Virus record (IMG/VR): IMGVR_UViG_3300029846_000231
Strand: one strand, 5' to 3'
Length of the DNA: 31,774 nt
DNA from: a virus
Taxonomy: Duplodnaviria > Heunggongvirae > Uroviricota > Caudoviricetes
Within the stretch, counting starts at the first letter, position 1; the number at the start of each line of letters is the position of its first letter. Made by a program: the position numbers and the translations under genes. Positions 2,727 to 30,724 of this stretch are shown one piece after another. The notes below the pieces were generated by a model, which did not search any database, had not been told where the DNA came from, and was given only the letters and a program-made list of their open reading frames with translations.

Positions 2727-2740
2727 TTTTCGTCACCTCC

Positions 2741-5188: not shown

Positions 5189-5608
5189 TCGTGTTTCCGC
5201 TTCGCCGGAGCGCCTTTTCGCGCCATGTGATGAGTTCGGTCAGGCTCATGGGATACAGTTCTGATGGCGGCCAGTGAAATATCACTGCCACATCCGCCAT
5301 CAGGTCATCGACCGAGAGATTTTTCGGAAACGTCACTGCACCGAGTTCGGCGACAAAAAACCGACCACCTTACCGGCCAGCGCCACAAGGTCAGGCAGTT
5401 CCAGCGCGGCGACTTCCTGCTCGGTCAGCATCGGTGCCGTCATGCGCGGCAGCACTTTAATCAGTGCATCGACTTCGGAGTTCGCGACTGCAGCCAGACT
5501 GACACCGCGCAGCGTCCCGGCATTGGGTTTCATCAGCGTGATCTGTTCGATAACCTGCTCACCACGTTTGACCGGATTGTCCAGGGTAATGACGTTTTCT
5601 TTGTTCAT
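5181..5608 (-). CDS. E: tail assembly chaperone E+E' made by programmed -1 frameshift
   Basis: After a -1 slip at T_TTT_TTG the -1 frame stays open for 56 codons (VAELGAVTFPKNLSVDDLMADVAVIFHWPPSELYPMSLTELITWREKALRRSGNTNE) to TAA at 5181-5183, overlapping the T start. Total length about 142 aa, the P2 E+E' size. Confidence 0.8.
5333..5608 (-). CDS. E: tail assembly chaperone E (91 aa, zero-frame product)
   Basis: 91-aa ORF between FII and T, matching P2 gpE length and position. Confidence 0.85.
   Translation of the reverse strand: MNKENVITLDNPVKRGEQVIEQITLMKPNAGTLRGVSLAAVANSEVDALIKVLPRMTAPMLTEQEVAALELPDLVALAGKVVGFLSPNSVQ
5354..5360 (-). other. -1 ribosomal frameshift slippery heptamer T_TTT_TTG
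   Basis: Minus-strand sequence GGT TTT TTG TCG lies in the E zero frame six codons before the E stop; this is the canonical tail-chaperone G/GT-type frameshift arrangement. Confidence 0.8.
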
Positions 5609-5664
5609 GGTTTTCTCACTTCTGAATCGGGGTTAACCGGTCAGCCAGGCTAACCGGATGAAAA

Positions 5665-6183
5665 TCACAGGCCGATATTGCGGCGGTGTTGCTCCAGCCG
5701 GTCGACGCCGTTCACCTTCTCAATCATGTTGATGGTGTCGATTTCGACCAGCTCCTTACCGTCCATCGTCAGCCGGAAATAGGTGCAGACCACGGAGATT
5801 TTCGACTCGGTGTCTTCTCCCTGTTTGCCCTCGCCGGTGTCGATTTCTTTCTGACGTCCACGCATGACCACCTCGACGGCCACCGTTTCGCCGGTATCGT
5901 CGCGCTGGTAAGAGCCTGCAAAACGAATCGGTACGGCATCCACACCGGTTGCGGCGTAAAGCTCCCAGATAACCGAATCCGGGAAGCCACCGAGCGACCA
6001 CTCCATTGACAGCGCATCGTCATCAAGGCCGAGGTCTACCGGTGCGCTGCCGTTCATCCCCGCACCGCGATAGTTTTCGAGCTTACGGGTCAGTTTTGGC
6101 AGCGTGACGGACTTCGCGACGCCCTGATAGCTGTAGCCGTTCAGAAAGACGTTCATTAACTTGAGTTTGCGCGGCATTGCCAT
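5665..6183 (-). CDS. FII: tail tube protein FII (172 aa)
   Basis: 172 aa, the P2 gpFII length; immediately downstream of FI. Confidence 0.9.
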   Translation of the reverse strand: MAMPRKLKLMNVFLNGYSYQGVAKSVTLPKLTRKLENYRGAGMNGSAPVDLGLDDDALSMEWSLGGFPDSVIWELYAATGVDAVPIRFAGSYQRDDTGETVAVEVVMRGRQKEIDTGEGKQGEDTESKISVVCTYFRLTMDGKELVEIDTINMIEKVNGVDRLEQHRRNIGL

Positions 6184-6195
6184 CGGTCAGGCTCC

Positions 6196-7386
6196 TTAAT
6201 TGCTGTTAACCGAGGTGACCAGATTTGCCAGGTATTTATCGGTAATACGCTGGCGCAGGGTCAGGTTTTCAAGAGGAGGCACCGGTGTATAGTCGTAGTC
6301 GATATACAGTTTTCCGGCCTTGAGGGTTTCCGCATCGTTGGATTCTTCGCTGAACCAGCAGGTCGCATCCACAATATAGCCGTTTGTTTTCAGCTCACGG
6401 AATTTGGCATTGATGCCGTCAACGATGTCGCGAATCAGCGTTGCAGTGATGGGCTTGTCCACAGCCCACATGTGCGCCTCAGCCATCGTGTCGGCCAGCA
6501 CCTGCGCGGTGCGGGTGTAGTTTTCAAAGAGGAACAGCGGGTCATCAGAGCAGGTACGGTTACCCCAGAAGCGGAAACCGTCACGGCGAATCAGCGTTGT
6601 GACACCTGACTCGTTCAACAGGTCAGCATCAGTGCCGGACTCCTGCAAATCCCAGAATACAGAGGCACTGATGCCGGTAACACCGTTTACCCCGACATTG
6701 GACAGCGTTTTATGCCAGCCCTGCTCCTGGTCGATTTTAGCGCGCAGACCCAGCGCACGGGCGGTGGCATACGCGGTGGCGGTGGTGCTGCTGACCGTAT
6801 CCCATGCGAGGAAATCCGGCCAGATGACCATCAGCTCACGCTGGCTGAAATTCTGGCGGTAGGCTTTCACCTCGGAAATGGTTTTACAGCCCCATGCGCT
6901 GATATACCCGAAAGCGCGCAGCTTCTGACAGACTGATGCCAGTGCAACAGCCACCTCTTTGGTGTCCAGTCCCGGCACGCCGAGAATACGCGGTTTAACA
7001 CCGGTTACCGACTCTGCCGCCAGCAGGGCTTTCAGTCCGGTATACTGACCGTTTTCGTCAGTGGTGCCGATGATATTGGAAACGGTCTGCGCGAGTTTCG
7101 TTTCTTCGTCGTCGCCGGTGCCGTCTTCAACACGCACGACAACGGTAACCGGTTTTGACTGGTCAGCGATGGCCTGCAACGATGCCGCCAGCGTGCCTTT
7201 TTTACCGGCCTTTGCAATTGCGCTCTGCACATTGGTAATCAGCACCGGTTTATTGAGGGGGAAGGTTTCCGCATCCGCATCGCTGGCCGTACAGACCATG
7301 CCGACAATGGCAGTGGATACGGTGGAAATGACGCGGGTGCCGTCGTTAATCTCCAGCACCTGCACGCCGTGATGATAGTCACTCAT
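6196..7386 (-). CDS. FI: contractile tail sheath protein FI (396 aa)
   Basis: 396 aa, the P2 gpFI length; first gene of the FI-FII-E-T-U-D late operon. Confidence 0.9.
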   Translation of the reverse strand: MSDYHHGVQVLEINDGTRVISTVSTAIVGMVCTASDADAETFPLNKPVLITNVQSAIAKAGKKGTLAASLQAIADQSKPVTVVVRVEDGTGDDEETKLAQTVSNIIGTTDENGQYTGLKALLAAESVTGVKPRILGVPGLDTKEVAVALASVCQKLRAFGYISAWGCKTISEVKAYRQNFSQRELMVIWPDFLAWDTVSSTTATAYATARALGLRAKIDQEQGWHKTLSNVGVNGVTGISASVFWDLQESGTDADLLNESGVTTLIRRDGFRFWGNRTCSDDPLFLFENYTRTAQVLADTMAEAHMWAVDKPITATLIRDIVDGINAKFRELKTNGYIVDATCWFSEESNDAETLKAGKLYIDYDYTPVPPLENLTLRQRITDKYLANLVTSVNSN

Positions 7387-7445
7387 CCGTTTAACTCCGT
7401 GGTTAATGGGTGAGTGGTATTTTCAGTTGTGCCGGAGATGTCAGG

Positions 7446-8039
7446 CTATTTGTCCCGGTTGGCTAAGGGATGACACAATTTATTCTTTGTCGCTGATGAG
7501 GGGAATTTTTTATAGAGCGTGGACAGGCCAATATCAAAAATCAGCGCCACGCGTTGACGTGATTCACCCGCAGCCAGCAACCGTCCTGCCTGTTCCCACT
7601 CACTCGCGGTGAGCTTCGGACGTCTGCCACCAATACGACCTTTGGCTCTGGCCGCTTCCAGTCCGGCGCGAGTCCGCTCGACAATGAGTTCTCGTTCCAT
7701 TTCAGCCAGGGCACCCATCACATGAAAGAAAAAACGTCCCATCGGCGTGCTGGTATCAATGGCATCCGTCAGGCTGCGAAAATTAATGCCGCGTTCGCGC
7801 AGCTCCTCAACCAGAATAACCAGATGCCGCATACTACGCCCCAGCCGGTCCAGCTTCCAGACTACCAGTGTATCCCCCTCCGATAATGTCCTGAGCAGTT
7901 TTTTCAGTCCCGGCCTGTCGGACTTCGTGCCGCTGATTTTATCCTCAAAAATCAGCTCACATCCTGCACACTCCAGCGCGTTACGCTGCAATTCCGTATT
8001 CTGGTCATTTGTTGACACGCGGACATAGCCAATAAGCAT
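7446..8039 (-). CDS. serine-recombinase DNA invertase, Gin/Cin/Hin/Pin family (197 aa)
   Basis: N-terminus MLIGYVRVSTNDQNTELQRNAL with the catalytic Ser in RVSTNDQ, plus VVWKLDRLGRSM and MGRFFFHVMGALAEMERELI, which I recognise as near-identical to Mu Gin. Sits directly beside an invertible tail-fibre segment. Confidence 0.9.
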   Translation of the reverse strand: MLIGYVRVSTNDQNTELQRNALECAGCELIFEDKISGTKSDRPGLKKLLRTLSEGDTLVVWKLDRLGRSMRHLVILVEELRERGINFRSLTDAIDTSTPMGRFFFHVMGALAEMERELIVERTRAGLEAARAKGRIGGRRPKLTASEWEQAGRLLAAGESRQRVALIFDIGLSTLYKKFPSSATKNKLCHPLANRDK

Positions 8040-8094
8040 GATGGATCCCCTGAATAAAAACCGGGGATGATGCCAGTTAGCCGTAATCTCTGCA

Positions 8095-8120
8095 TTTTCT
8101 TAAACGTTGGTTTGGGAGAA
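8095..8120. repeat. candidate gix/hix-like invertase crossover site (left end of invertible segment)
   Basis: 26-bp 12-2-12 site ttttcttaaacg-tt-ggtttgggagaa. The reverse complement of its right half, TTCTCCCAAACC, resembles the Gin/Hin half-site consensus TTATCAAAAACC. It lies at the start of the silent fibre cassette, at the shared GLG codons. Confidence 0.55.
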
Positions 8121-8480
8121 GCGGCAAAACGGGGGGTGGGAACAGGGGAAAATCAGATACCGGACATGGCTTCATTTAGTGGGGTGAGGGATTATTACGG
8201 AAAACAACTTTTGCCAGGAGGGTTGATACTTCAGTGGCTGACGATTCCATCAAGTGCAGCAGCCAAAGCTGTAACACTGAATAATGGTAATTATCAGCTG
8301 TCAGGCTATAAATGGCCCCAGTCATTTGGTGTCCTGTTTGCTGTGTTTGCTACAAAAGTTTCTGGCTCGACTAACGAAGCATATGCAATCTCAGTTAATC
8401 GTCACTCTACCGATGTAATTGTCACCTGGAATGCCCGTAAGGCTGATGATGTCCACATTTTAGGAATTGGGAAATTATGA
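8109..8480 (+). CDS. silent alternative tail-fibre C-terminal cassette (expressed only after inversion)
   Basis: Frame begins with [23 protein letters not shown], paralogous to residues 277-299 of H (GLGTAAKKDVGTGTGQVPDMSSF), then diverges. No independent promoter or RBS is expected. Confidence 0.65.
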
Positions 8481-8896
8481 AAATGAAATGGTCCCCATCT
8501 GTTCAGGGATTTTTCTCTGAAAATAACAGCGATATTCCCGATGATGCTTTCGATATTGAAGATGCTCTTTATTATGAACTTATGAATGGTCAGAGTACGG
8601 GGAAAATTATTATCAATAACCCGGATAACTACCCTGTACTTACTGAATATCCAGCGAAGACACAGGAACAGGAAATAGCTGAAGCGGAGGGAATGAAAAG
8701 TATACTTATTGAACAGGCCAACGAATACATGAACAGTAAGCAATGGCCTGGTAAAGCCGCTATTGGTCGTCTGAAAGGTGAGGAACTGGCGCAATATAAT
8801 TTGTGGCTGGATTATCTGGACGCACTGGAACTGGTTGATACCTCCAGTGCTCCAGATATTGAATGGCCTACGCCTCCGGCAGTTCAGGCCAGATGA
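8477..8896 (+). CDS. alternative tail-fibre assembly chaperone (Tfa-like), cognate to the silent cassette
   Basis: 139 aa, start overlaps the cassette stop (ATGA). C-terminus [16 protein letters not shown] is paralogous to the C-terminus of the active Tfa ([15 protein letters not shown]). Confidence 0.65.
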
Positions 8897-9299
8897 CATC
8901 CGGCGCAGGGGAAGTATCTACCGCTTCCAATTTCTTGGCATAACTCCGCCAGGCTATGAGCCTGGCTTTATCTGCATCGCTGATAATTCCGAGCAGTAAA
9001 TCAGTCTGCCATTCACGAACAGCTTCCGCAGATTCGGCCATTAGCTGCGCTTTTTGGTTTTCTGCCTCCTGCACTGCGATAGCGTGAAGCTCATCATCTG
9101 TTGGAGGCGGAATATCTTCCCACGCAGGCAAACCATCAGCACCCGGCACACGTCGCTTCCCGTCGTTTTCTCCGATAAAAAATTCTGCAAAAATCTCGTT
9201 CGAAACAGGGACGGCATCAGTAAATGCGTCTGTTTTCAGTAAAGTACTTCCTGCAGCAATGAACACATTCTTTTTTGCGCTGTAATAGTAACTGGTCAT
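8868..9299 (-). CDS. G: tail-fibre assembly protein (Tfa, P2 gpG-like), active orientation
   Basis: 143 aa immediately downstream of H, with the conserved Tfa C-terminal motif; converges on the alternative tfa with a 29-nt overlap. Confidence 0.75.
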   Translation of the reverse strand: MTSYYYSAKKNVFIAAGSTLLKTDAFTDAVPVSNEIFAEFFIGENDGKRRVPGADGLPAWEDIPPPTDDELHAIAVQEAENQKAQLMAESAEAVREWQTDLLLGIISDADKARLIAWRSYAKKLEAVDTSPAPDVIWPELPEA

Positions 9300-10520
9300 T
9301 TACACTCTCCCTACGGCAATCCAGTGCGCCGTTGCTGAGCCGCCCTTGAACGTTTTATCTGCTCCCTGCCACCAGATCGAGCGGAACCCGAAAGAGGTTG
9401 TTCCCAGCGATTGAGCACCATAGATCACTAACCCTGAGTACACGTTCCCGGACGAAACCCAGTTCGACACCGCAGATTCCCCCGTCAGAACGCTATAGAA
9501 ACTCATCGCAAGGCCAAGGTTCACGGTCGCAAATCCATTTGCATCTGTAGACACCTTACCGCCCTGAATAACAATGCCTCCCGGCAGTTGCATCACAAAG
9601 GCATTAACGTTGCCTGTAACTGTGAATGATGACATATCCGGCACTTGGCCCGTTCCGGTTCCAACATCTTTTTTGGCTGCTGTTCCTAAACCAAGGTATG
9701 CGAGAAGACCAGCTACATCCTTTCCACTCAAATTAGTCAGCGTATTGTCCCGTGGCTGCTTACCTGACAGCGCATTGTTAATGGTGGTACTGAATTTCGG
9801 GTCATTGTTAATGGCTGCGGCAATTTCTTTCAGTGTGTCCAGCGTGGCTGGCGCACCGTTAATCAGAGCGGTAATAGCGGCCTGAACAAACTCAGTGGTC
9901 GCAATCCGCGTGGTGTTATTTCCTGCGGCAGGCGTCGGCGCTTTTGGTTCTCCGGTAAATGTCGGATTATGTTTCTGTGCATACTGGGTATGAGGGTCCT
10001 GTGCGGCAATGTGGTTTCTCATTTGGTCATCCACATACAGCCTTAATTCCAGGACTTCATCATCCACGTATTTACGGGTCGCCAGTACCACCGACGGGTC
10101 GATTTTCAGCGTGATAGCTTCGGTATTCGTGACAACCAGAATCATGCGGATAGTCTGGGTACGACCACTGCCTTCCTGCAACTGCGGTTTGTACGTTTCC
10201 GGGCAGTTCGCCACCGCAATGAGTACGCCTTCATCATCATAAAGCCCAATCTCACGGATCCAGAATCCGCCCTCGTTCTCAGGGATGATTTGCTCCGCAA
10301 TAATCTGGCTCTGGTTGTTCGGGTCAACACTCAGAAGATTCAGCGGCGCGATGCGTTTCTGGTTAATAAGTTTTGTCTGTGCCGGGTCTGGTGTCGGCAA
10401 GACACCATTTGCATCACCAACGGCCATTTGCGTCAGATTCAGCTTACTGCCGAGCATCGTCGCGTTAGCCAGCCGTGCCGCGCCCTGATTAGTCAGAATG
10501 GCGTAGTATTTCACTGTCAT
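9300..10520 (-). CDS. H: tail fibre protein H (406 aa), active orientation; C-terminal about 130 aa lie inside the invertible segment
   Basis: N-terminal region (MAVGD...GGFWIREIGLYDDEGVLIAVAN...YKPQLQEGSGR) resembles the conserved P2 gpH N-terminal domain as I remember it; C-terminal part is variable. Confidence 0.85.
   Translation of the reverse strand: MTVKYYAILTNQGAARLANATMLGSKLNLTQMAVGDANGVLPTPDPAQTKLINQKRIAPLNLLSVDPNNQSQIIAEQIIPENEGGFWIREIGLYDDEGVLIAVANCPETYKPQLQEGSGRTQTIRMILVVTNTEAITLKIDPSVVLATRKYVDDEVLELRLYVDDQMRNHIAAQDPHTQYAQKHNPTFTGEPKAPTPAAGNNTTRIATTEFVQAAITALINGAPATLDTLKEIAAAINNDPKFSTTINNALSGKQPRDNTLTNLSGKDVAGLLAYLGLGTAAKKDVGTGTGQVPDMSSFTVTGNVNAFVMQLPGGIVIQGGKVSTDANGFATVNLGLAMSFYSVLTGESAVSNWVSSGNVYSGLVIYGAQSLGTTSFGFRSIWWQGADKTFKGGSATAHWIAVGRV
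9681..9706. repeat. candidate gix/hix-like invertase crossover site (right end of invertible segment, inside H)
   Basis: 26-bp site tgttcctaaacc-aa-ggtatgcgagaa; left half resembles the Gin gix half-site TTCCTGTAAACC. The central dinucleotide is the reverse complement of that at 8107-8108, so the two sites are in inverted orientation. It overlies the H codons LGLGT. Confidence 0.55.
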
Positions 10521-19280: not shown

Positions 19281-19453
19281 TGTCAGGAGTCCTGAATAGT
19301 GATTAGAGGAGTCACATGTCGGCATCAGTTTCCCGACGATGCGCATCCTCCGCCATCAGTCCCGGATGGCTTATCACTGACACAACAGCACCTTAGCGAA
19401 TCGCGGGGCGCGACTCAGTAGCCTTGCCGTGTATTCATCACGGCGAGGTATTC

Positions 19454-21226
19454 ATGACCATCACCACAGACACCACTCTTTTACACGACCCGCGTCGTCA
19501 GGCGGCGCTGCTGTACTGGCAGGGGTTTTCCGTGCCGCAGATTGCCGCCATGTTGCAGATGAAACGTCCGACGGTGCAGAGCTGGAAACAGCGCGACGGC
19601 TGGGACAGCGTTGCCCCCATCAGCCGTGTCGAAATGAGTCTGGAAGCGCGACTGACCCAGCTCATCATCAAACCGCAGAAAACCGGCGGTGACTTCAAGG
19701 AAATTGACCTGCTGGGACGCCAGATTGAACGACTGGCACGGGTAAACCGCTACAGTCAGACCGGCAACGAGGCAGACCTTAATCCGAACGTCGCTAACCG
19801 CAACAAAGGCGGGCGACGCAAACCGAAAAAGAATTTTTTCAGCGACGAGGCCATCGAAAAGCTGGAGCAGATTTTCTTTGAGCAGTCTTTCGAATATCAG
19901 TTGCACTGGTATCGCGCCGGGCTTGAGCACCGCATCCGCGATATCCTGAAATCCCGCCAGATTGGCGCGACGTTTTATTTTTCCCGCGAGGCGCTGCTGC
20001 GCGCCCTGAAAACCGGTCATAACCAGATTTTTCTGTCGGCCAGTAAAACGCAGGCGTATGTGTTCCGCGAATACATCATCGCCTTTGCCCGTCTGGTTGA
20101 CGTTGACCTGACCGGTGACCCGATTGTCCTGGGCAATAACGGCGCAAAACTGATTTTTCTCGGCACCAACTCCAACACCGCACAGAGCCATAACGGCGAC
20201 CTGTACGTCGACGAGATTTTCTGGATCCCGAATTTTCAGGTACTGCGTAAGGTGGCATCAGGTATGGCCTCACAGAGTCACCTGCGCTCGACCTATTTCT
20301 CCACCCCGTCCACGCTGGCGCACGACGCCTACCCGTTCTGGTCGGGTGAACTGTTCAACCGGGGACGCGCCAGCGCCGCCGAACGCGTGGAAATCGACGT
20401 CAGTCATAACGCCCTTGCCGGTGGGTTTCTCTGTGCGGACGGCCAGTGGCGGCAGATTGTCACCATTGAGGACGCCCTGAAAGGTGGCTGCACGCTGTTC
20501 GACATTGAGCAGCTTAAACGCGAAAACAGCGCCGACGATTTTAAAAACCTGTTCATGTGTGAATTTGTTGACGACAAGGCGTCGGTATTCCCGTTCGAGG
20601 AGCTGCAACGCTGCATGGTCGACACGCTGGAAGAATGGGAAGACTATGCGCCGTTTGCCGCCAATCCGTTCGGCTCCCGCCCGGTCTGGATTGGTTACGA
20701 CCCGTCACACCGTGGCGACAGTGCCGGATGCGTGGTGCTGGCACCGCCGGTGGTGGCCGGTGGCAAATTCAGAATACTTGAGCGTCACCAGTGGAAAGGC
20801 ATGGACTTTGCCACCCAGGCTGAATCCATCCGCAAACTCACCGAAAAATACAACGTCGAATACATCGGAATTGATGCCACCGGCCTCGGTGTCGGCGTGT
20901 TCCAGCTCGTTCGCTCGTTCTATCCCGCCGCGCGCGATATCCGCTACACGCCGGAAATGAAAACCGCAATGGTGCTCAAGGCAAAAGACGTTATTCGCCG
21001 TGGCTGTCTGGAATATGACGTCAGCGCCACCGACATCACCAGCTCGTTTATGGCTATCCGCAAGACCATGACCAGCAGCGGACGCAGCGCCACCTATGAG
21101 GCCAGCCGCAGCGAGGAAGCCAGCCACGCCGACCTCGCCTGGGCGACCATGCACGCCCTGTTAAATGAGCCACTCACCGCGGGTATCAGCACTCCGCTGA
21201 CATCCACCATTCTGGAGTTTTACTGA
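19454..21226 (+). CDS. P: terminase large (ATPase) subunit P (590 aa)
   Basis: Start at MTITTDTTLLHDPRRQAALLYWQGFSVPQIAAM gives 590 aa, the P2 gpP length; preceded by GAGGT 5 nt upstream. Confidence 0.9.
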   Translation: MTITTDTTLLHDPRRQAALLYWQGFSVPQIAAMLQMKRPTVQSWKQRDGWDSVAPISRVEMSLEARLTQLIIKPQKTGGDFKEIDLLGRQIERLARVNRYSQTGNEADLNPNVANRNKGGRRKPKKNFFSDEAIEKLEQIFFEQSFEYQLHWYRAGLEHRIRDILKSRQIGATFYFSREALLRALKTGHNQIFLSASKTQAYVFREYIIAFARLVDVDLTGDPIVLGNNGAKLIFLGTNSNTAQSHNGDLYVDEIFWIPNFQVLRKVASGMASQSHLRSTYFSTPSTLAHDAYPFWSGELFNRGRASAAERVEIDVSHNALAGGFLCADGQWRQIVTIEDALKGGCTLFDIEQLKRENSADDFKNLFMCEFVDDKASVFPFEELQRCMVDTLEEWEDYAPFAANPFGSRPVWIGYDPSHRGDSAGCVVLAPPVVAGGKFRILERHQWKGMDFATQAESIRKLTEKYNVEYIGIDATGLGVGVFQLVRSFYPAARDIRYTPEMKTAMVLKAKDVIRRGCLEYDVSATDITSSFMAIRKTMTSSGRSATYEASRSEEASHADLAWATMHALLNEPLTAGISTPLTSTILEFY

Positions 21227-22260
21227 TGAGCAAGAAAAAAGGGAAAACACCGCAACCTGCGGCAAAAAAAATGACCGCCAGCACCCCGAAAATGGAGGCA
21301 TTCACCTTTGGCGAGCCGGTACCGGTACTCGACCGCCGTGACATTCTGGATTACGTCGAGTGCATCAGTAACGGCAGATGGTATGAACCACCGGTCAGCT
21401 TTACCGGTCTGGCAAAAAGCCTGCGTGCTGCCGTGCATCACAGCTCACCGATTTACGTCAAACGTAATATTCTGGCCTCAACATTTATCCCGCATCCGTG
21501 GCTTTCCCAGCAGGATTTCAGCCGCTTTGTGCTGGATTTTCTGGTGTTCGGTAATGCGTTTCTGGAAAAGCGTTACAGCACCACCGGTAAGGTCATCAGA
21601 CTGGAAACCTCACCGGCAAAATATACCCGCCGTGGTGTGGAAGAGGATGTTTACTGGTGGGCGCCGTCCTTCAACGAGCCGACAGCCTTCGCGCCCGGCT
21701 CCGTGTTTCACCTGCTGGAGCCGGATATTAATCAGGAGCTGTACGGCCTGCCGGAATATCTCAGCGCCCTTAACTCTGCCTGGCTGAATGAGTCGGCCAC
21801 GCTGTTCCGCCGCAAGTATTACGAAAATGGCGCACATGCCGGATACATCATGTACGTCACTGATGCCGTGCAGGATCGCAACGATATCGAAATGCTTCGC
21901 GAAAACATGGTCAAGTCGAAAGGCCGCAACAACTTTAAAAATCTGTTTCTCTATGCCCCGCAGGGGAAAGCCGACGGTATTAAAATTATCCCGCTCAGTG
22001 AAGTGGCAACGAAGGACGATTTTTTTAATATCAAAAAAGCCAGCGCCGCTGACCTGCTGGACGCGCACCGCATCCCCTTTCAGTTGATGGGCGGCAAGCC
22101 GGAGAACGTCGGGTCGCTGGGTGATATTGAGAAAGTGGCAAAGGTCTTTGTCCGCAATGAACTTATCCCGTTACAGGACAGGATTCGGGAAATAAACGGC
22201 TGGCTCGGCCAGGAGGTCATCCGCTTTAAAAACTACTCACTGGACACTGACAACGGCTGA
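21226..22260 (+). CDS. Q: portal protein Q (344 aa)
   Basis: 344 aa; N-terminus MSKKKGKTPQPAAKKMTASTPKMEAFTFGEP as in P2 gpQ; start overlaps the P stop. Confidence 0.9.
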   Translation: MSKKKGKTPQPAAKKMTASTPKMEAFTFGEPVPVLDRRDILDYVECISNGRWYEPPVSFTGLAKSLRAAVHHSSPIYVKRNILASTFIPHPWLSQQDFSRFVLDFLVFGNAFLEKRYSTTGKVIRLETSPAKYTRRGVEEDVYWWAPSFNEPTAFAPGSVFHLLEPDINQELYGLPEYLSALNSAWLNESATLFRRKYYENGAHAGYIMYVTDAVQDRNDIEMLRENMVKSKGRNNFKNLFLYAPQGKADGIKIIPLSEVATKDDFFNIKKASAADLLDAHRIPFQLMGGKPENVGSLGDIEKVAKVFVRNELIPLQDRIREINGWLGQEVIRFKNYSLDTDNG

Positions 22261-22265
22261 ACATC

Positions 22266-22287
22266 GCCGCCTGCGGGCGGCTTTTTT
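22266..22287 (+). terminator. Rho-independent terminator after Q
   Basis: Stem gccgcc / ggcggc with loop tgcg followed by TTTTTT, 6 nt after the Q stop. Confidence 0.65.
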
Positions 22288-22429
22288 ACACCCCGTCATC
22301 ACGCCCTCACACGCTCACCACCGCACAAAATACCCCGCAGACACACCAACGCCCCGGCGCACAATCTAAACGCCATCAAGACGCGCTCAGACGCTGAAAA
22401 AATAAAATCAGCACCACCGCCAGCGCGCA

Positions 22430-22448
22430 GTGCTTTCCCCGCCTCGCC
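22430..22448. other. cos site (19-nt cohesive-end sequence)
   Basis: gtgctttccccgcctcgcc is the reverse complement of GGCGAGGCGGGGAAAGCAC, which I recall as the P2 cohesive end; located about 170 bp beyond Q, as in P2. Confidence 0.8.
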
Positions 22449-22686
22449 CGCCCGCTTCATGGGGCAGTTTTAATGCAGTTGCATAGATACTATGGATCCG
22501 CACCAGTCCTGACCGCACGCAGCCTGAACGGACATCCCCGACGCATGCAAAAACATTCACTTGTTGCATGCAACGGCTTATTTAATGACAAATCAACTTA
22601 AATTTACAAAATCCACAGGTATGGATACTTTGCGAACATGATAGGCTTACGAGAATTATCGAGCCTATTTTTGACCGGAGCAATGT

Positions 22687-23628
22687 ATGCAAGGTAAAGT
22701 TGACGAACAGCAATCCAATGATATTGAAGCTGAGTTTGGATACTATCCAGTAGAAGTTAACGTTGAAACTGATGATTTTTCTTTACTTACTTTACCCGGT
22801 CTAGCGGAAAAAACAAATCTTATAAACAATCACAGAAATGTTATTAACGGTTGGATATACCCAGGAAACCAAGAAGTATATAACCTCAATGGAGGCATAT
22901 CCACAATGCCTTTTAGCCAACGAGTATTTGGCTTACCCAAAACACACTCACTAAAATTAAAAAATACATCTTCACTAGAAACTCTCAATTTTGCTGTGTG
23001 GTGTCTGTCTTTTTTCAAAGGGATAAGATTAACAACTACTGATGCCGGTTTTTTAGACGCAACCCCAATAAAACCTAGCAAATTAACTGACTTTATTCTG
23101 GTCAAGTGCTCTGAAAAAGAGGTTATAGAATTAGCACTCAAATACATGTCTAGCGAGACAAAAACCAAACACGCACCAATAAATATAGCAGCAATAGTGC
23201 ATGCACTATTTTTATCCCAAAACCCACAATACCTTAGCTTCGAAAAATTCCAGTATCTTTATATGGCACTGGATAGTTGCTTTGCTTTAACATGGGCAGA
23301 AAAGAACAAGTGTACAGAAAAGACTCTAAATCACTCCAGGCGCTTGAAGTGGATCTGCAAAACTTATGGAATACCACGACCATCATGGGTTACAGGCAAA
23401 AAAAACATTACAAACATCCGCAATGAAAACTTTCATGAAGCTATGTTTCATGGTCAACCACTTGGCTTTACCACTATTAACAATTATCAATATGGAGATG
23501 ACATATTACAACAAATGCAGGCTTTAATTTGCCGATTACTCGTTGCGATTCTTGGTGTTAACGCCCCCGATTACATCACATCGAACGTGAACTCTCGTGA
23601 ATATCATTCACTAACATTAAAAATATAA
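22687..23628 (+). CDS. hypothetical protein, 313 aa, AT-rich cargo; candidate HEPN-like defence effector
   Basis: GGAG 6 nt before the ATG. Strong compositional contrast with flanking phage genes. C-terminal region has KNITNIRNENFHEAMFHG, i.e. an R-N-x3-H motif of the HEPN type (Rx4-6H). Family not recognised. Confidence 0.6.
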   Translation: MQGKVDEQQSNDIEAEFGYYPVEVNVETDDFSLLTLPGLAEKTNLINNHRNVINGWIYPGNQEVYNLNGGISTMPFSQRVFGLPKTHSLKLKNTSSLETLNFAVWCLSFFKGIRLTTTDAGFLDATPIKPSKLTDFILVKCSEKEVIELALKYMSSETKTKHAPINIAAIVHALFLSQNPQYLSFEKFQYLYMALDSCFALTWAEKNKCTEKTLNHSRRLKWICKTYGIPRPSWVTGKKNITNIRNENFHEAMFHGQPLGFTTINNYQYGDDILQQMQALICRLLVAILGVNAPDYITSNVNSREYHSLTLKI

Positions 23629-23644
23629 AACGACTAAAAATACT

Positions 23645-23668
23645 CTCCAGTAACAATAAGTACTGGAG
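23645..23668 (-). terminator. Rho-independent terminator between the convergent cargo genes
   Basis: 8-bp stem ctccagta / tactggag with 8-nt loop; on the minus strand followed by AGTATTTTTAG, 40 nt after the stop of the 199-aa gene. Confidence 0.55.
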
Positions 23669-23710
23669 ATGTATTATCACTAAAACCAATAAAAAATCAC
23701 AACTAATGCT

Positions 23711-24310
23711 TTACTTAGATAGTTTGTCTTTAATTATATTCAGAACACCAATTATTAATTCACTGATTGGCGTGGCCAACTCAATAGTATTAGATGTCGA
23801 CTTTGTTCTAAAGTCTTTATCTGTCGGGTGTTGAAATGCTGATTTAAGAAGAGTCAAAAGCAAAGTTAAACCCACACCAAGGATGAATGCAACAATAGCT
23901 ATTAGAGAACTGGCCGATAACCAATCGGTGGATAAACCAGAAATAGATTTTCTAACTTTATTAGTGTCTGAAGATGGTGTTATCCTCTCATCAGCCATCT
24001 TCGGATCCGAAGATAAAGCAGAACATTTTTCTGCTGAAACACAAGTTTGTGTATCTACTTTTTGTGTTATCGCTGCGGCAATACTGCTTTTCGCTTCCAG
24101 CAAGCCATTTCCAACAGCCAAAGCAAAGTTAAGCCCCTGCCATAGAAATGTACAAGCAAAACAAAGCACAACGGCAGAGAGCACTAATCGCATGCTTCTA
24201 CGCTCTATACCATCCCGTCTATCTCGCCTTATAAGGATATCAGGATCTAAATCGCCCTTAGGAGTGGTTCCTTGCTCTGGGGACTGTCCAGATAAATCAA
24301 TATCAGCCAT
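23711..24310 (-). CDS. hypothetical membrane protein, 199 aa, two predicted transmembrane helices
   Basis: Hydrophobic stretches LVLSAVVLCFACTFLWQGLNFALAVGNGLL and LIAIVAFILGVGLTLLLTLL; charged N-terminus (RRDRRDGIERR). Same strand and 66 nt downstream of the peptidase gene; AT-rich. Confidence 0.6.
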   Translation of the reverse strand: MADIDLSGQSPEQGTTPKGDLDPDILIRRDRRDGIERRSMRLVLSAVVLCFACTFLWQGLNFALAVGNGLLEAKSSIAAAITQKVDTQTCVSAEKCSALSSDPKMADERITPSSDTNKVRKSISGLSTDWLSASSLIAIVAFILGVGLTLLLTLLKSAFQHPTDKDFRTKSTSNTIELATPISELIIGVLNIIKDKLSK

Positions 24311-24376
24311 AAAAAAATCACCCTTACATGTACAAACGTAAAGGTGATTTTAAACAGGTTAAAAGTTAAAGGCTAA

Positions 24377-24862
24377 TTAATAAGCCATTCCTAAGCTCTT
24401 TAAGCGCCAATGCATAGCGGCTTCTGATACATTAAAGATGCTTGCTAATCTCAAAGTGCTATCAATACCTTCTCTGGATACCAATTGACGTATAGCAGAC
24501 TCAGGCATTAACAACTCAGCAGCAAACTTGTTTGCTTCAACCTCACGGTAATCACGAGCACCTGTTGAATAATTCCCGACATTATCCCGATGGTACTCTC
24601 CGTCCTGGGTATGCCCCAGCACATGATGACCTAACTCGTGTGCAACAGTAAAACGTTGACGATTAGAATGTTCACTAGAATCAAAATAAATCCTATGGAC
24701 ACCCTTTTTGATGACAGCCAGACCGCTTAACCCATCGTTGTTATAAGCCGATTCCTCAAGTGCTTCAACACGAGCACCCCACGCTTTAGCAAGCTTAAAC
24801 GGATCGACAGGTAGTCGGCGATCCCAATAGCGGTCAAGCAGTTTTTTAGCTGCATAGCTCAT
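24377..24862 (-). CDS. ImmA/IrrE-family (M78-type, COG2856-like) Zn-metallopeptidase domain protein, 161 aa
   Basis: HEXXH motif in FTVAHELGHHVLGH plus downstream EANKFAAELLMPE, the characteristic ImmA/IrrE signature. AT-rich; no adjacent XRE/HTH partner on either strand. Confidence 0.7.
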   Translation of the reverse strand: MSYAAKKLLDRYWDRRLPVDPFKLAKAWGARVEALEESAYNNDGLSGLAVIKKGVHRIYFDSSEHSNRQRFTVAHELGHHVLGHTQDGEYHRDNVGNYSTGARDYREVEANKFAAELLMPESAIRQLVSREGIDSTLRLASIFNVSEAAMHWRLKSLGMAY

Positions 24863-25583
24863 GGTTGCCTCCTACGTTAAAAAAGTTAAGTATGCACAGC
24901 CATATCACAGTTGTTATTTTATGTCAAGGCTGTTTTTCAGCCATTACTATAACACTAATCCACGTTTTCCCATAACATTTTCGACATCATATATGCATTC
25001 CGTTCTGCATATAGAGCTTATCTTTGCTGATAACACGAGATGAATACGCGCAACCAGCCCACGATTTATAAAAAACCTTATAAATCAGAATATTGAGTTA
25101 AAAAAACACTAACTACTTGCGCAGCGCGTTGTTAAACCTCAGCGACACTAAAAGAAAATTTCAGAGTCACCGAAGTTTCCACAGAAAACGCAACTTAATG
25201 ATTTTATTGGAATTTATGTCGCTATTTTTAATTACTTGTTTAAATCCGCCATATTGAAACTGTGCATTTCTAGCCACTCACAACTTTAAAAAATTTACAT
25301 TGCTTTCAAGACCTTATCATCCGTAGTCTCTGCTTTTTACTTTGAGCTATATCAAAAAAAGCTCAAACATCCTTGATGCAAAACCAGTATTACACAACAT
25401 AAAATGCAACCAGAAACAACGACATACTATATGTTGTGTTGTTCAGGTCCTCTGTTCGGTGATATGCCAGATCACTTTGCGTTTAAACAGAGCATTATTT
25501 CAGGGCAAGACTTCGCTCAATAGTCACTCCGCCTTAGAAGCGCATATATCGGCGGAAATTGCCCTCTGCTTACAGGAGGCGAT

Positions 25584-25697
25584 ATGAAGAAGTGCTATTA
25601 CTGCATTCTCGTTCTGGCCCTCTTTGGCTATCCATATGGTAGTCCGAGTGGTTTGTCAGTAAACGTCAGTAATATCCATGTAAGTATTTTTCTTTAG
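25584..25697 (+). CDS. small hydrophobic peptide, 37 aa (MKKCYYCILVLALFGYPYGSPSGLSVNVSNIHVSIFL); type I toxin-like or small membrane protein
   Basis: Consensus SD AGGAGG 4 nt before the ATG; TAG stop 13 nt before a strong terminator hairpin. Short, with a hydrophobic core after a KK N-terminus. Confidence 0.4.
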   Translation: MKKCYYCILVLALFGYPYGSPSGLSVNVSNIHVSIFL

Positions 25698-25710
25698 TAT
25701 GCTTCAAACA

Positions 25711-25739
25711 AAAAAACCACCTGCCAGGGTGGTTTTTTT
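25711..25739. terminator. bidirectional Rho-independent terminator
   Basis: A6-ccacctg-cc-agggtgg-T7: GC-rich hairpin flanked by an A-run and a T-run, so it can terminate the small plus-strand gene and minus-strand transcription from A. Confidence 0.65.
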
Positions 25740-25999
25740 GCGCCCGTCATCAATCCGATGAAAGACTAGCAAGACTTCGCTCGAGATGAATTATGCTTCG
25801 ACATAAAGTCACTCGCAATGGTTTTATTAACCGAAATAGATGCTCTTTTATGACTCGAATCAAATAGCTGCCTTCAATTACATGCTAACGATTCAATACA
25901 ATTTAGCCTTCTGATTCAACACGCTATTGCTCCTCATCTACCTTAGAGGTGCTTCGCATAATCCATTCAAAGACATATAAAATCACGCTGTATTTTTAC

Positions 26000-28276
26000 T
26001 CAAATGGGTAACAAAAACCCCGGCCAATCATCAGCGACCTGATAAGTGAAAGGTTTCCCGTCATAATTTACGGTCGCGCCACGCGCCAGCGCCTCAAGCT
26101 CCCATCGTTGCGGCCTGATACCGTTCTGAGCGAGATCAACGCGGATACGGGTAATTTGCAATCGTTCCGACCGGGTCAGTCTGGCCGATGGTGCAATTTC
26201 ATGCGGTTTTAACGGGCTTCCGTTTCTTTGCTGACGGTTTGGCGTTCTCCGGTCGTGTTTTAATGCGCCCCTGAGCGCCCTCACGACCTCCGGGTCATTC
26301 CATTCGATAACATCGTCATCAACCAGATTAAGCACTGCTGCGGCGTGCTCAGAAGGTGTGGGAGCCGGTAACGAAGTATCACCACCGGTGAGCTTTCCAC
26401 AGTTATTGACAGGACTCCGAGGCGCGGCGATGCCGCTTTTTAAAGTCAAAGGCTCAACGACCGGAACTTTCGGCACAATGCGCCAGTCCGTCGTTCTGGT
26501 GATATGAATATGACGCGCGCCGAGATGCGGCGCGTAAATGCCGACCACTCTCTCGACTTCTTCCTCGTACTCGTTAACGTCATCCGACAGACTACGGGCG
26601 ACCCTGACAGTCTGACAATCGCGCGGGACATTTGCCCCGCCCTGCGCGCTGATATACAGCGCAAAATCACCACTGTCTGCGGCGGCGCGTGCAGCCTCGA
26701 CGCGCTCGTCAAACTCATCAGCAATGCTGACGCCGCGAGGCAATTTGCGTAGTTCACGGTAAGCCCCCATTGTCGGCAGGCCAACCGTTTTAAATTGCGG
26801 AATGCGCCACGTTGACGCCCATGCGGTAACAGCCGCTGCAGTGTCTTTCAGCGGCCTGCCGGTGTCGTTATCGAGCTGACCATCCAGTGCATAGCCGTCG
26901 ATGTTTTTTGAAATGTATTTCGCGATATATCCCGCAGCACCGCCCCGGTTAAGGTGTTTTGCCTGAAAACGGTTTCGCGCGGCTCCTCTTTCGTCGCCAT
27001 CCTCTTTGAGCGCATAGCGACGCATGATTTCGATAATCTGGTTACGCTGGCGTGGATGACAAAAAAGCATCATATGCCAGTGCGGCGTTCCGTCGTGGTG
27101 TGGCTCGACGACTCGCAAACCGTAGACCTGTAAATCATTATCCTTGAATGCCGTGCGCATCAGGCTCCAGATACGGCAGAGATAACGCTGCGCATCCTTT
27201 GGATTAAATGCCTCATCGTTCCAGCCGTGATTAAGCTGAACGGTTTTACTTTCGCCTTTTCCGACCTGACGTGTCGGGTGATACTTTGACGGCGCGGTCA
27301 GCGTGATAAACATCCCCACATCACCCTCTGCGGCGGCGTAACGCTCAATACCGGCAATGGTGTTCATCAGCTCCATCCGGCGAATTTCAGGATTAGAAAT
27401 ACTGCCCATCACCTTACTGATAAGGTCGATGCGCTCGCCGGTTTCCCTGTTTTCAAGGTCACACGATTTAAGAAATTCCAGATTTGCCTGGCGGCGCGCA
27501 CGCACATCACGAATGGCGTGTTTACTGGCATAAGGAGAACGGTCTTTATTGACCTCCCCGACAGCTATCAGTAACGCCTCATGCCAGCGCATACGCTGGC
27601 CTTTAAGCTGATGAGTCCACCACTCATCGTTAAACAGGCGGGCAATGGCAGAATATGCCTGCCTCGTGGTCATCTGTCCTTTACGGTATTTTTTCCAGTA
27701 GAGCGGGGAAATATTGAAAGCACGTGCAGCGCCAGCAACATGACCATACAGGTGAGCCTGCGCCTCATCCGTAAACAGCGATTCTTTTTCACCATGCGCA
27801 TCAACCCATGCATCGCAGAGTTCCTCATACATCATGAAAAGCTGCGATGAGATACGGGCGGCAAACTTTTTCAGCTCCTTGTCATTCATTCCCGGCAGGC
27901 GCGCATAGTGGTCACGCTCTGCCAGAAACAGCAACGACGCGTCGGTGTTCATTTCATGGCGCTGATTCACACGCTCAATGCGCGGCCATAAACGACGCTG
28001 AAAAGTAGATGTGAGGAAATAAAACCCGTGCACCGGGCTTTTATTGCGCCGGATGTAGTCATAGCGTGAAGTAAACAGCGAGCGCAAAAAGTAAGGCAGG
28101 CGGTTAATCGTGGATAAAACACCTTGCACCTGACGCATCTCGTCACGTGTAAGAGGTCTTTCGCGCCCGACAGCCTCGCGTGGCGCGTTCCATGCATAAG
28201 CACCGGTAAACGCCTTACCGGTGCCTGCGGTAAATGCTGACGGAGGGACAAAACGCCCGGAGGCTTTAACGGCCAT
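26000..28276 (-). CDS. A: replication initiation protein A (rolling-circle nicking endonuclease), about 758 aa
   Basis: Start at MAVKASGRFVPPSAFTAGTGK as I recall for P2 gpA (about 761 aa); the six-frame ORF extends 14 codons upstream. Large protein in the P2 A position after orf83. Confidence 0.85.
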   Translation of the reverse strand: MAVKASGRFVPPSAFTAGTGKAFTGAYAWNAPREAVGRERPLTRDEMRQVQGVLSTINRLPYFLRSLFTSRYDYIRRNKSPVHGFYFLTSTFQRRLWPRIERVNQRHEMNTDASLLFLAERDHYARLPGMNDKELKKFAARISSQLFMMYEELCDAWVDAHGEKESLFTDEAQAHLYGHVAGAARAFNISPLYWKKYRKGQMTTRQAYSAIARLFNDEWWTHQLKGQRMRWHEALLIAVGEVNKDRSPYASKHAIRDVRARRQANLEFLKSCDLENRETGERIDLISKVMGSISNPEIRRMELMNTIAGIERYAAAEGDVGMFITLTAPSKYHPTRQVGKGESKTVQLNHGWNDEAFNPKDAQRYLCRIWSLMRTAFKDNDLQVYGLRVVEPHHDGTPHWHMMLFCHPRQRNQIIEIMRRYALKEDGDERGAARNRFQAKHLNRGGAAGYIAKYISKNIDGYALDGQLDNDTGRPLKDTAAAVTAWASTWRIPQFKTVGLPTMGAYRELRKLPRGVSIADEFDERVEAARAAADSGDFALYISAQGGANVPRDCQTVRVARSLSDDVNEYEEEVERVVGIYAPHLGARHIHITRTTDWRIVPKVPVVEPLTLKSGIAAPRSPVNNCGKLTGGDTSLPAPTPSEHAAAVLNLVDDDVIEWNDPEVVRALRGALKHDRRTPNRQQRNGSPLKPHEIAPSARLTRSERLQITRIRVDLAQNGIRPQRWELEALARGATVNYDGKPFTYQVADDWPGFLLPI

Positions 28277-28541
28277 ATGAGCCAAAAGCCTCTGAACAAC
28301 GCTTGCTGAGTTGCTCAACCTGCGCGTTTAAATCAGCAAAAGATTTTGCGCTTCCGGTCAGAATATCGTGATGCATCAGGCCGGAAACGAGCTGGCCTAA
28401 TTTCGGGTAATAACCAACCACCGCCAGCCATTCCTGACCGGCGTTTTTACCGCTTTCCGCTCTCTTTTTCTCGTGGAGAATAAACTGAAAGCTGTCACTG
28501 GTAACGACATAACGTTCGCCAATTTCAACACGAATACTCAT
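28266..28541 (-). CDS. P2 orf83-like protein (91 aa)
   Basis: Small ORF in the P2 early operon between orf82 and A; start overlaps the orf82 stop. Confidence 0.7.
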   Translation of the reverse strand: MSIRVEIGERYVVTSDSFQFILHEKKRAESGKNAGQEWLAVVGYYPKLGQLVSGLMHHDILTGSAKSFADLNAQVEQLSKRCSEAFGSYGR

Positions 28542-29852: not shown

Positions 29853-30046
29853 TTCCATACCCTCCGGCTTTTCAGAAAGGTCAGAGCCTTTTTTAACGGA
29901 CTCTGTTTTTTGGTGCGGATAATGATTCCCTTACGCCCCTTACCGTGGGTGATGGTGAAGTCAATCGCCCTGGGGCTTTCGTTACGCAATAACTGAGCAA
30001 TACAACGCGGCTCATTCATAATCACAACCCCATCCACAAAAGCCAT
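29849..30046 (-). CDS. P2 orf78-like small basic protein (65 aa)
   Basis: Small ORF between cox and B, where P2 has orf78; overlaps the cox 3' end by 25 nt in another frame; Lys/Arg-rich. Confidence 0.5.
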   Translation of the reverse strand: MAFVDGVVIMNEPRCIAQLLRNESPRAIDFTITHGKGRKGIIIRTKKQSPLKKALTFLKSRRVWK

Positions 30047-30309
30047 GCATCACGCTGTTCAACCGGTCGGTTATAAAACGCCTCACGTACAGCGCGATTA
30101 AACTCAGGAATGAAAACCCATTTTTCACCGGCACGAGCCTTCGGTTTGCAAGGATCACGCAATTCAATAATTGGTAATTTATTTGCCTTCACCATTTCAC
30201 TGACGGCTGTCTTTGGCTTCCCTAATAAATCAGCAAATTTATCCACATGAACCGCATCAAGCGGATACTGAATCACATAATTTTCAGCGTCCATATATGG
30301 TACCCTCAT
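30022..30309 (-). CDS. cox: Cox-like excisionase / early-promoter repressor (90-95 aa)
   Basis: Divergent from C; pattern FADLLGKPKTAVSEMVKANKLPII...ARAGEKWVFIPEFN...RPVEQRDAWLLWMGL parallels P2 Cox. Start ambiguous between 30309 and the ATG at 30294. Confidence 0.75.
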   Translation of the reverse strand: MRVPYMDAENYVIQYPLDAVHVDKFADLLGKPKTAVSEMVKANKLPIIELRDPCKPKARAGEKWVFIPEFNRAVREAFYNRPVEQRDAWLLWMGL

Positions 30310-30430: not shown

Positions 30431-30724
30431 ATGAAATTAAGCGAAAAGATTAAGGCCTTGCGTGAGGCTGAAGGGCTAAGCCAATCAAAATTCTGTGAAA
30501 TCATAGAGTTACCGCTAAGCACACTTAAAAAATATGAAGGAGGAAACTTTGAACCCGGTGGCACAGCTTTGCTAAAAATCACTATGCATCCCACATTCCA
30601 AAAATATGCTCTATGGCTTATGACAGATAAAACCGCGCCGGACGCAGGACAAATCGCACCGGCTCTCGCGCACATTGGGCCAGAGTCAACAGAGTCCAAC
30701 CACTCCGCGAAAAGGATTGGCTAA
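30431..30724 (+). CDS. C: immunity repressor C (97 aa)
   Basis: 97 aa; C-terminal region contains GQIAPALAH and ...KYALWLMTDKTAPDAGQ..., resembling P2 C repressor (99 aa) as I recall it; directly upstream of int. Confidence 0.8.
   Translation: MKLSEKIKALREAEGLSQSKFCEIIELPLSTLKKYEGGNFEPGGTALLKITMHPTFQKYALWLMTDKTAPDAGQIAPALAHIGPESTESNHSAKRIG

Follow-up and report, generated by a model that had tools for sequence, protein, structure and literature searches.

A stand-alone M78 peptidase and a two-helix membrane protein in the Q–A locus of a P2-like prophage: a probable Kita-type RosmerTA module

The virus record IMGVR_UViG_3300029846_000231, a stretch of 31,774 nt analysed here as a whole and called the window, is a P2-like (Peduovirus) prophage of Escherichia coli. 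On its minus strand lie two genes, one for a 161-aa stand-alone zinc peptidase of the M78 (ImmA/IrrE) type (24377-24862) and one for a 199-aa membrane protein with two transmembrane (TM) helices (23711-24310), separated by a gap of 66 nt (24311-24376). The open reading frames (ORFs), their lengths and the gap had been proposed in a first-pass annotation of the letters alone and were all confirmed. We consider it probable, at about 0.6, that the pair is a toxin–antitoxin (TA) defence module of the Kita type of RosmerTA, in which the peptidase has no helix-turn-helix (HTH) domain, and that it is cargo of the Q–A hotspot of the prophage. The peptidase would be the antitoxin (RmrA-like) and the 199-aa protein a membrane-depolarising toxin (RmrT-like); toxicity, neutralisation and anti-phage function are all ascribed by homology. 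So understood, the pair is not a new class of system, but a proteobacterial member of HTH-less Kita-type RosmerTA.

The closest characterised relative is found in an actinobacteriophage. A tblastn search of phage genomes with the peptidase led to gene 32 of Gordonia phage Kita, with 98% of the length covered, and BLASTP identified the stand-alone M78 peptidase as a full-length homologue of the product, gp32 (RmrA_D25, YP_009301393.1), at 38% identity (E = 2e-29). Kita gp32 and gp33, annotated as “Peptidase_M78” and “Transmembrane”, are RmrA_D25 and RmrT_D5 of a validated RosmerTA system (Ernits et al., 2023, PNAS, PMC10440598). E. coli membranes are rapidly depolarised and made permeable by the Kita toxin, which its peptidase neutralises in part, and the pair protects against the BASEL phages Bas54 and Bas59 only, both grouped under Myoviridae in that study, which obtained no reliable model of the Kita complex (PMC10440598). 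The first-pass annotation had spoken of a sensor-effector abortive-infection module; a sensor role of the peptidase is not supported, the validated role of the homologous Kita peptidase being that of antitoxin, or neutraliser. The abortive-infection idea itself fared better, the pair being located in a defence hotspot and its closest characterised relative being of the TA/abortive-infection type with a depolarising effector; the architecture is not new, as it is already present in Kita and in the catalogue of Rousset et al. (2022).

The two systems are alike in several ways. Both are phage-borne, with the peptidase gene first, and in both the peptidase consists of the M78 domain alone (~160-180 aa) with a YW-x-R-x-x-PVDP motif at the N-terminus, while the partner is small and has, behind an acidic N-tail, two TM helices, the second (TM2) beginning with WLSA. 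PADLOC returned the same pattern for both, capP and a partial RmrA match for the peptidase and nothing for the toxin; since the toxin has no PADLOC model, the pair goes unrecognised by annotation tools. Unlike its Kita counterpart, the membrane partner of the window has 199 rather than 119 aa, a periplasmic loop of ~65 residues with two cysteines and a conserved C-terminal amphipathic helix, and the genes, which in Kita overlap by 4 nt, are split by a terminator-like hairpin.

For the toxin, the evidence of homology with Kita is mixed, and it draws on intermediate sequences and shared architecture. Kita gp33 (RmrT_D5, YP_009301394.1) is a 119-aa protein with DDSG in its acidic N-tail, two TM helices and WLSA opening TM2, and the window protein has a matching DWLSASS at the start of TM2. 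A hidden Markov model (HMM) of the broad partner family gave Kita gp33 26.6 bits, while none of 1000 segment-preserving shuffles exceeded 11.2, and when Kita-like members were left out of the HMM, the real gp33 (10.7) still ranked above all shuffles (maximum 9.4).

The pairing is ancient and obligate. Prophages and islands that are unrelated to each other carry the peptidase and two-TM genes together in at least 10 genera, with the two-TM gene always downstream, which bears out the co-occurrence that the first-pass annotation had proposed as a check; besides E. coli, the genera include Pectobacterium, Serratia, Klebsiella, Aeromonas, Vibrio, Pseudomonas, Acinetobacter, Burkholderia and Pseudoalteromonas. 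In Pectobacterium, Serratia, Vibrio and Acinetobacter, an M78 peptidase of 161-166 aa precedes each diverged membrane-protein homologue on the same strand, and distant peptidases (44-52% identity) from an Aeromonas Mu-like prophage and from Pseudomonas and Klebsiella prophages all have a two-TM protein of the same family downstream. Going from near to distant relatives, peptidase/partner identities of 86/56, 63/51, 52/38, 51/30, 47/31, 47/38 and 43/29% fall together, so the partners are inherited as a unit. Among 80 IMG/VR loci with related peptidases, ~40 have a two-TM ORF and 15 a one-TM ORF immediately downstream. The peptidase has no other universally conserved partner than the two-TM protein, and in nine other contexts of the pair no conserved HTH neighbour was seen. 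Recurrence in at least 10 genera, together with a ratio of nonsynonymous to synonymous change (dN/dS) of ~0.04 for the peptidase against two diverged copies, a sign of strong purifying selection, implies that the genes are not chance ORFs. A profile scan of genome contigs with the two-TM alignment gave 80 pattern matches, none of which was confirmed by tblastn.

The genomic contexts, taken from exact-protein look-ups, are diverse. In Pectobacterium the pair occupies the end of an HK97-like prophage, in Vibrio a recombinase island, in Acinetobacter an element with a DUF927 primase, and in Klebsiella again a prophage end. In the Peduoviridae phages Carl1 (Burkholderia) and ACA1 (Pseudoalteromonas) it lies, as here, next to cos; elsewhere it is found at prophage ends beside host genes, a typical site of lysogenic-conversion (moron) genes. 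The Pseudomonas pair follows directly 3' of a gene for an S24-type cI-like repressor on the same strand, which we take to be a rexAB-like position. In Serratia the pair is part of a chromosomal island, with nrdG/nrdD and a classical RosmerTA-like pair as neighbours; in Serratia nevei (locus positions 5445-10246) the latter, ~1.8 kb away, comprises a 223-aa protein and a 371-aa HTH_3–Peptidase_M78 fusion.

The peptidase is an unambiguous member of its family (Pfam PF06114, Peptidase_M78, E = 3.8e-21), and the M78 fold predicted in the first-pass annotation was thus borne out by the profile search as well as by Foldseek, in which the AlphaFold2 (AF2) model (mean confidence, pLDDT, 85) had CapP (7t5t) and IrrE/PprI (3dti/8sln) as its best neighbours in the Protein Data Bank; the Foldseek template modelling scores normalised to the target are only 0.37-0.42. 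H75, E76, H79, H84 and E107 are invariant in an alignment of 38 homologues. The zinc-binding and catalytic HELGH motif, noted already from the letters (residues 75-79, codons 24626-24640, minus strand), supplies H75, E76 and H79, and the third zinc ligand is E107 (codon 24542-24544, minus strand), in E-x-x-A-N-x-F-A-A-E-L-L-M-P, rather than E109 as the earlier reading of “EANKF” implied; E107 aligns with the corresponding glutamate of CapP 7t5t. PADLOC matched the peptidase to capP (1e-30, profile positions 8-153 of 242) and in part to RmrA (6e-17, ~146-267 of 363). The protein comprises the peptidase domain and a small HTH-like helical subdomain; both a GAF domain and an N-terminal XRE domain are absent. 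The lack of an adjacent HTH/XRE partner, pointed out in the first-pass annotation, was upheld: no HTH Pfam match was found in the ORFs of the module, in the 1.1 kb upstream, in the flanks or in the rest of the cargo, and the closest HTH gene is that of the prophage C repressor, 5.6 kb away.

The membrane protein has no Pfam or PADLOC match and belongs to PHROG 8096, of unknown function; its homologues form 53 clusters. Hydropathy and the AF2 model agree on two TM helices, as first proposed, with both termini predicted inside. AF2 places helices at residues 23-87, 117-159 and 175-198. The first TM helix (TM1) spans residues ~42-66 (24113-24187, minus strand) and is preceded by the basic juxtamembrane segment RRDRRDGIERRSMR. 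TM2, residues ~131-155 (23846-23920, minus strand), DWLSASSLIAIVAFILGVGLTLLLTLLK, is the most conserved part of the family, AFILGVGLTL-LTLLK being invariant from E. coli to Vibrio and Acinetobacter. The periplasmic loop of ~65 residues is variable and has two cysteines conserved in Enterobacterales, and a conserved cytoplasmic amphipathic helix, ELATPISELI...KDKLSK (23717-23788, minus strand), closes the protein. At the other end, the cytoplasmic N-tail, otherwise variable and disordered, opens with M-x-[DE]-I-D-L-S-G, which is conserved across Enterobacterales homologues (an alignment of 23) and is followed by a variable linker rich in P, S, T and Q that leads to the basic segment before TM1. 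Because this motif is conserved in homologues, the 199-aa start is the real one, and the 159-aa model of RefSeq and Rousset et al., which starts at an internal methionine, is truncated at the N-terminus.

Codons D5-L6-S7-G8 of the motif occupy 24287-24298 (minus strand). A looser pattern, D[LIVFMD][SAT]x0-1G, occurs in the N-tails of 16 of 48 distinct two-TM partners, compared with 1.6 expected from shuffled tails, and its carriers include Burkholderia, Pseudoalteromonas, Pseudomonas and Kita gp33 (DDSG). D-L-S-G is a candidate docking or cleavage site for the peptidase. The two proteins evolve at unequal rates: for one pair of loci, dN was 0.40 in the membrane protein and 0.08 in the peptidase, a roughly fivefold faster nonsynonymous change.

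The two genes were first described as an operon, and simple co-expression is contradicted by what lies between them, namely a terminator-like hairpin that sequesters the ribosome-binding site (RBS) of the second gene. The hairpin and its U7 run (24311-24351, minus strand) consist of a 16-bp stem (24314-24351) and a U-run (24311-24317) that directly adjoins the AUG of the membrane-protein gene, and a Shine–Dalgarno-like GGGUGA lies within the 3' arm. Folding gave ΔG = −18.4 kcal/mol and z = −5.2, and this is how the hairpin was verified, as the consensus scanner did not call it; the scanner missed it because the A/U-extended stem uses up the T-run that it requires. The layout of hairpin, U-run and AUG is repeated in P2DC1, Pectobacterium, Serratia, Vibrio, Aeromonas, Klebsiella and phage ACA1, with stem sequences that are unrelated among these loci and with compensatory (covarying) stem changes. 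In the branch of Pseudomonas, Burkholderia and Kita, the genes are instead ~13 nt apart at most, or share an overlap of 1-17 nt. We infer that the hairpin acts as both an intrinsic terminator and a translation attenuator, which would keep the membrane protein far below the peptidase, the stoichiometry expected for an antitoxin over its toxin.

Taken together, a Kita-type module would work as follows. The two-TM protein would be a pore-forming, membrane-depolarising toxin; the M78 peptidase, whose gene comes first and which would be made in excess, would hold it harmless in the lysogen, with the high ratio of peptidase to toxin presumably set by the hairpin. Upon infection by a sensitive phage, neutralisation would fail, the membrane would be depolarised and the infection would abort. 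A more specific version, which we put forward tentatively and hold to be well short of even odds, is that of a proteolytic antitoxin: the peptidase may cleave the N-tail of the toxin at or near D-L-S-G, perhaps with a hand-over to ClpXP or FtsH, the hairpin may enforce the excess of the protease, and the infecting phage may block it.

The position of the pair in the prophage accords with a defence role. The genes for portal gpQ (21226-22260, plus strand) and for the replication endonuclease gpA (26000-28318, minus strand) enclose a low-GC (36-47%) cargo stretch in which the pair is found, and this gene order therefore places it in the cos-proximal Q–A cargo locus, which in P2-like prophages is a hotspot of anti-phage systems (Rousset et al., 2022, PMC9122126). 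As befits hotspot cargo, the site lies between gpQ/cos and gpA and its content varies among relatives. The C repressor of the window prophage is 100% identical in L-413C, FSLSP004, R18C, P24B2 and P2_AC1, which carry different cargo, so immunity type and cargo assort independently. The pair is present in 50 of 5426 complete E. coli genomes, in all cases on the chromosome and including ST131 strains, and the isolated phage MET_P1_103_31 carries it at 99.8% identity. In E. coli CUWW10 an IS4-like insertion sequence, ISVsa5, sits between the portal gene/cos region and the neighbouring orf313, and the peptidase pair is intact (locus positions 719-1927).

The exact E. coli pair has been catalogued before, with no function assigned. 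In the hotspot survey it is system #21, “Peptidase_M78”, with 148 occurrences among 18,150 P2 hotspot loci (Rousset et al., 2022, PMC9122126, Table S5B); the window peptidase is listed residue for residue as protein 1, and protein 2 corresponds to the membrane protein in its shorter, 159-aa model (PMC9122126, Tables S5A and S5B). A plasmid named pFR104, “Peptidase + TM”, was built from E. coli TA280 with the native upstream region (PMC9122126, Table S2B), and we find that it holds a diverged variant also present in phage P2DC1. To this the present analysis adds the relation to Kita RosmerTA, the full 199-aa ORF of the membrane protein, the motif in its N-tail and the hairpin.

Several points weigh against the Kita-type reading. 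pFR104 is listed among the “additional tested systems” and not among the validated ones (Table S2A), having been assayed in MG1655 with a panel of eight phages (PMC9122126). Toxicity and neutralisation have been demonstrated for the Kita pair only (PMC10440598). A direct comparison of the narrow enteric two-TM profile with Kita gp33 was not significant, and the D-L-S-G motif, present in only about a third of the partners, is far from universal. Lastly, in Salmonella Infantis CP148870 (3001-4151) the peptidase gene has a 1-nt frameshift at codon ~84 while the two-TM gene is intact. The frameshift, located in a G-run, could be an error of sequencing or a natural, tolerated peptidase knockout; if real, it argues against a toxin that is lethal when not neutralised. 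A search for natural peptidase knockouts yielded this one ambiguous frameshift only.

Four other explanations were weighed. The best of them, which we nevertheless regard as unlikely, reverses the roles: the peptidase would be the effector and the membrane protein its sensor or anchor, so that infection, for instance through a disturbance of the membrane during DNA injection, frees or activates the peptidase to cleave a host or phage protein in a Lit-like manner. The fully conserved active site speaks for it, as do the fast-evolving loop and N-tail of the two-TM protein beside a constrained peptidase, as if the former faced the phage. In the homologous Kita system, however, it is the transmembrane protein alone that is toxic and pore-forming and the peptidase that neutralises, and the most conserved segment of the two-TM family is TM2 rather than any soluble sensing domain.

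We think it improbable that the pair is an anti-repressor switch, in which an ImmA-type peptidase cleaves C or another repressor and so induces the prophage, while the membrane protein regulates or tethers the peptidase. The idea draws on the biochemistry of the family, as all biochemically characterised M78 relatives (ImmA, IrrE and CapP) cleave XRE-type HTH repressors, and the C protein of the window prophage (30431-30724, plus strand, XRE-type) is itself an HTH_3 protein. Moreover, phage 186 keeps an SOS operon at the same position, tum–partial terminator–orf97, in which an exclusion gene comes after the anti-repressor, and the ACA1 homologue was annotated “antirepressor” by the ACA1 authors. 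Yet identical C repressors occur in at least seven phages with other hotspot cargo, and P2DC1, which has the module, has a C that is only 56% identical though the peptidases are 88% identical. The pair also lives with unrelated repressors, such as the self-cleaving S24 protein in Pseudomonas, and in the Serratia chromosomal island and the Vibrio recombinase island. The two-TM protein is its sole universally conserved companion. Of the marks of an ImmA/ImmR-type switch, neither an adjacent XRE gene nor co-variation of peptidase and C was found; Tum is not homologous to the peptidase, and no LexA box is present. Regulation of the C repressor by the peptidase, which the first-pass annotation had named as the outcome that would overturn its proposal, is unlikely in view of this absent coupling between C alleles and the module.

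It is similarly improbable that the pair is a selfish addiction module only, a TA unit that stabilises the prophage or island and has no anti-phage role. The negative result of pFR104 with eight phages and the presence of the pair on many kinds of mobile element would fit; but the site is in a defence-enriched hotspot, the Serratia pair stands beside another RosmerTA-like pair, and the Kita defence is narrow but strong, so a small panel easily misses activity. Least probable of all is envelope superinfection exclusion, in which the two-TM protein blocks phage DNA entry and the peptidase matures it or turns it over with no cell death: a small inner-membrane protein with a variable, two-cysteine periplasmic loop, the moron positions in prophages and the orf97 precedent at the equivalent 186 locus point that way, but the module is homologous to a depolarising TA pair, its short-loop members (Pseudomonas and Kita types) have almost no periplasmic exposure, and an RBS-sequestering terminator implies very low expression, which would be unusual for an exclusion protein.

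Like canonical RosmerTA (Millman et al., 2022) and the Xre–COG2856 TA pairs (PD-λ-2B, spr1629 family), the pair has an M78 “antitoxin” beside a variable toxin of unknown fold. Canonical RmrA has 360-400 aa and an N-terminal XRE HTH, unlike the 161-aa peptidase of the window, which has no HTH fusion and to which RmrA profiles align over their peptidase part only, and in canonical RosmerTA the toxin is often encoded first, unlike here. The essential rmrA genes that a transposon-sequencing study reports in Pectobacteriaceae belong to canonical RosmerTA and not to the peptidase and two-TM pair. ImmA/ImmR (ICEBs1), IrrE/DdrO and CapP/CapH share the M78 fold and catalytic residues, but the module differs from them in that it has no adjacent gene for an XRE substrate, no GAF domain and no cysteine-switch cysteine; the GAF domain of CapP and IrrE forms half of a single-stranded-DNA-binding groove, and the combination of peptidase, HTH and C-terminal GAF that marks CapP/CapH and IrrE/DdrO was not found here.

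Two further comparisons are analogies. In λ RexAB and Sbash gp30/31, a cytoplasmic prophage protein is partnered with a small membrane protein that is proposed to cause depolarisation when the cell is infected; unlike in the present pair, the RexA type is not a peptidase and the RexB type has four TM helices, and there is no sequence or fold relationship. At the equivalent Q–A site (positions 2521-3964), phage 186 carries p95(LexA)–tum–t95a partial terminator–orf97, which parallels the module in having two genes and an internal partial terminator and is not homologous to it; orf97 blocks 186 infection from a plasmid (phage 186 record note). BLASTP gave no significant match to Tum/DinI or orf97, and no LexA box lies near the putative promoter. 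A description of the phage ACA1 homologue as “homologous to 186 Tum” was considered and set aside, having no sequence support.

Around the pair, the prophage is of the usual P2-like kind, with terminase gpP (19424-21226, plus strand), Cox (30022-30309, minus strand) and, in the same region as C, an integrase. Convergent with the module is orf313 (22687-23628, plus strand), which encodes 313 aa of unknown function (PHROG 5937) with no Pfam or PADLOC match; a bidirectional terminator hairpin found by terminator scan (23644-23669) marks the end of the module and divides the two. Relatives of orf313 adjoin different cargo, such as that of P2-EC67, which carries retron Ec67, and that of P2-like phages of Yersinia. 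As a third component it was rejected: P2DC1 and the non-P2 contexts have no copy, and in P2-EC67, for instance, it accompanies other cargo.

Upstream of the peptidase gene, a GGAGG RBS (~24868-24872, minus strand) is preceded by a promoter-like element (24899-24927, minus strand), with a perfect −35 TTGACA (24922-24927), a 17-nt spacer and a weak −10 TATGGC (24899-24904). This TTGACA-17-TATGGC, ~35-65 nt before the ATG and kept in P2DC1, is a putative promoter read from the letters; the consensus promoter/terminator scanner made no call there, and a LexA-box search found none nearby. The 1.1-kb ORF-free upstream stretch, 97% conserved with P2DC1, was tried as part of the module and rejected: a P2-like prophage whose cargo is different shares its A-proximal ~750 nt, so the module proper starts near 25240-25280. 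An Rfam scan of 22261-26100 gave sub-threshold chance matches only.

The ORF-poor stretch beyond that boundary (25240-25999) includes a segment of ~97 nt (25286-25382, plus strand) that is ~85% identical to the treC–nrdD intergenic region of all 5426 E. coli genomes and carries an FNR-box-like TTGAGCTAcATCAA as well as a second TTGATG. The segment seems to be a captured anaerobic nrdDG promoter, and it points rightwards, away from the peptidase genes, toward two small ORFs downstream, of 81 aa (25342-25587) and, hydrophobic, of 37 aa (25584-25697), with a bidirectional terminator near 25700-25740. Conservation of the ~730 nt around it is 97% with P2DC1 and 86% with a P2-like prophage that has other cargo. 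The closeness of the Serratia pair to nrdD echoes this fragment.

The analysis ties an orphan P2-hotspot entry to a validated defence family, and it describes the HTH-less pairing of an M78 peptidase with a two-TM protein as a widespread, vertically coupled module of Proteobacteria and their phages, with a homologue, already validated, in an actinobacteriophage. The corrected ORF, the N-tail motif and the attenuator between the genes offer handles for studying how an M78 protein may neutralise a membrane toxin. If the tentative proteolytic-antitoxin version is true, it would explain the role of the M78 domain in RosmerTA-type systems, and it would mean that toxins are neutralised enzymatically in a large prophage-borne family that extends from Proteobacteria to actinobacteriophage, as represented by Gordonia phage Kita.

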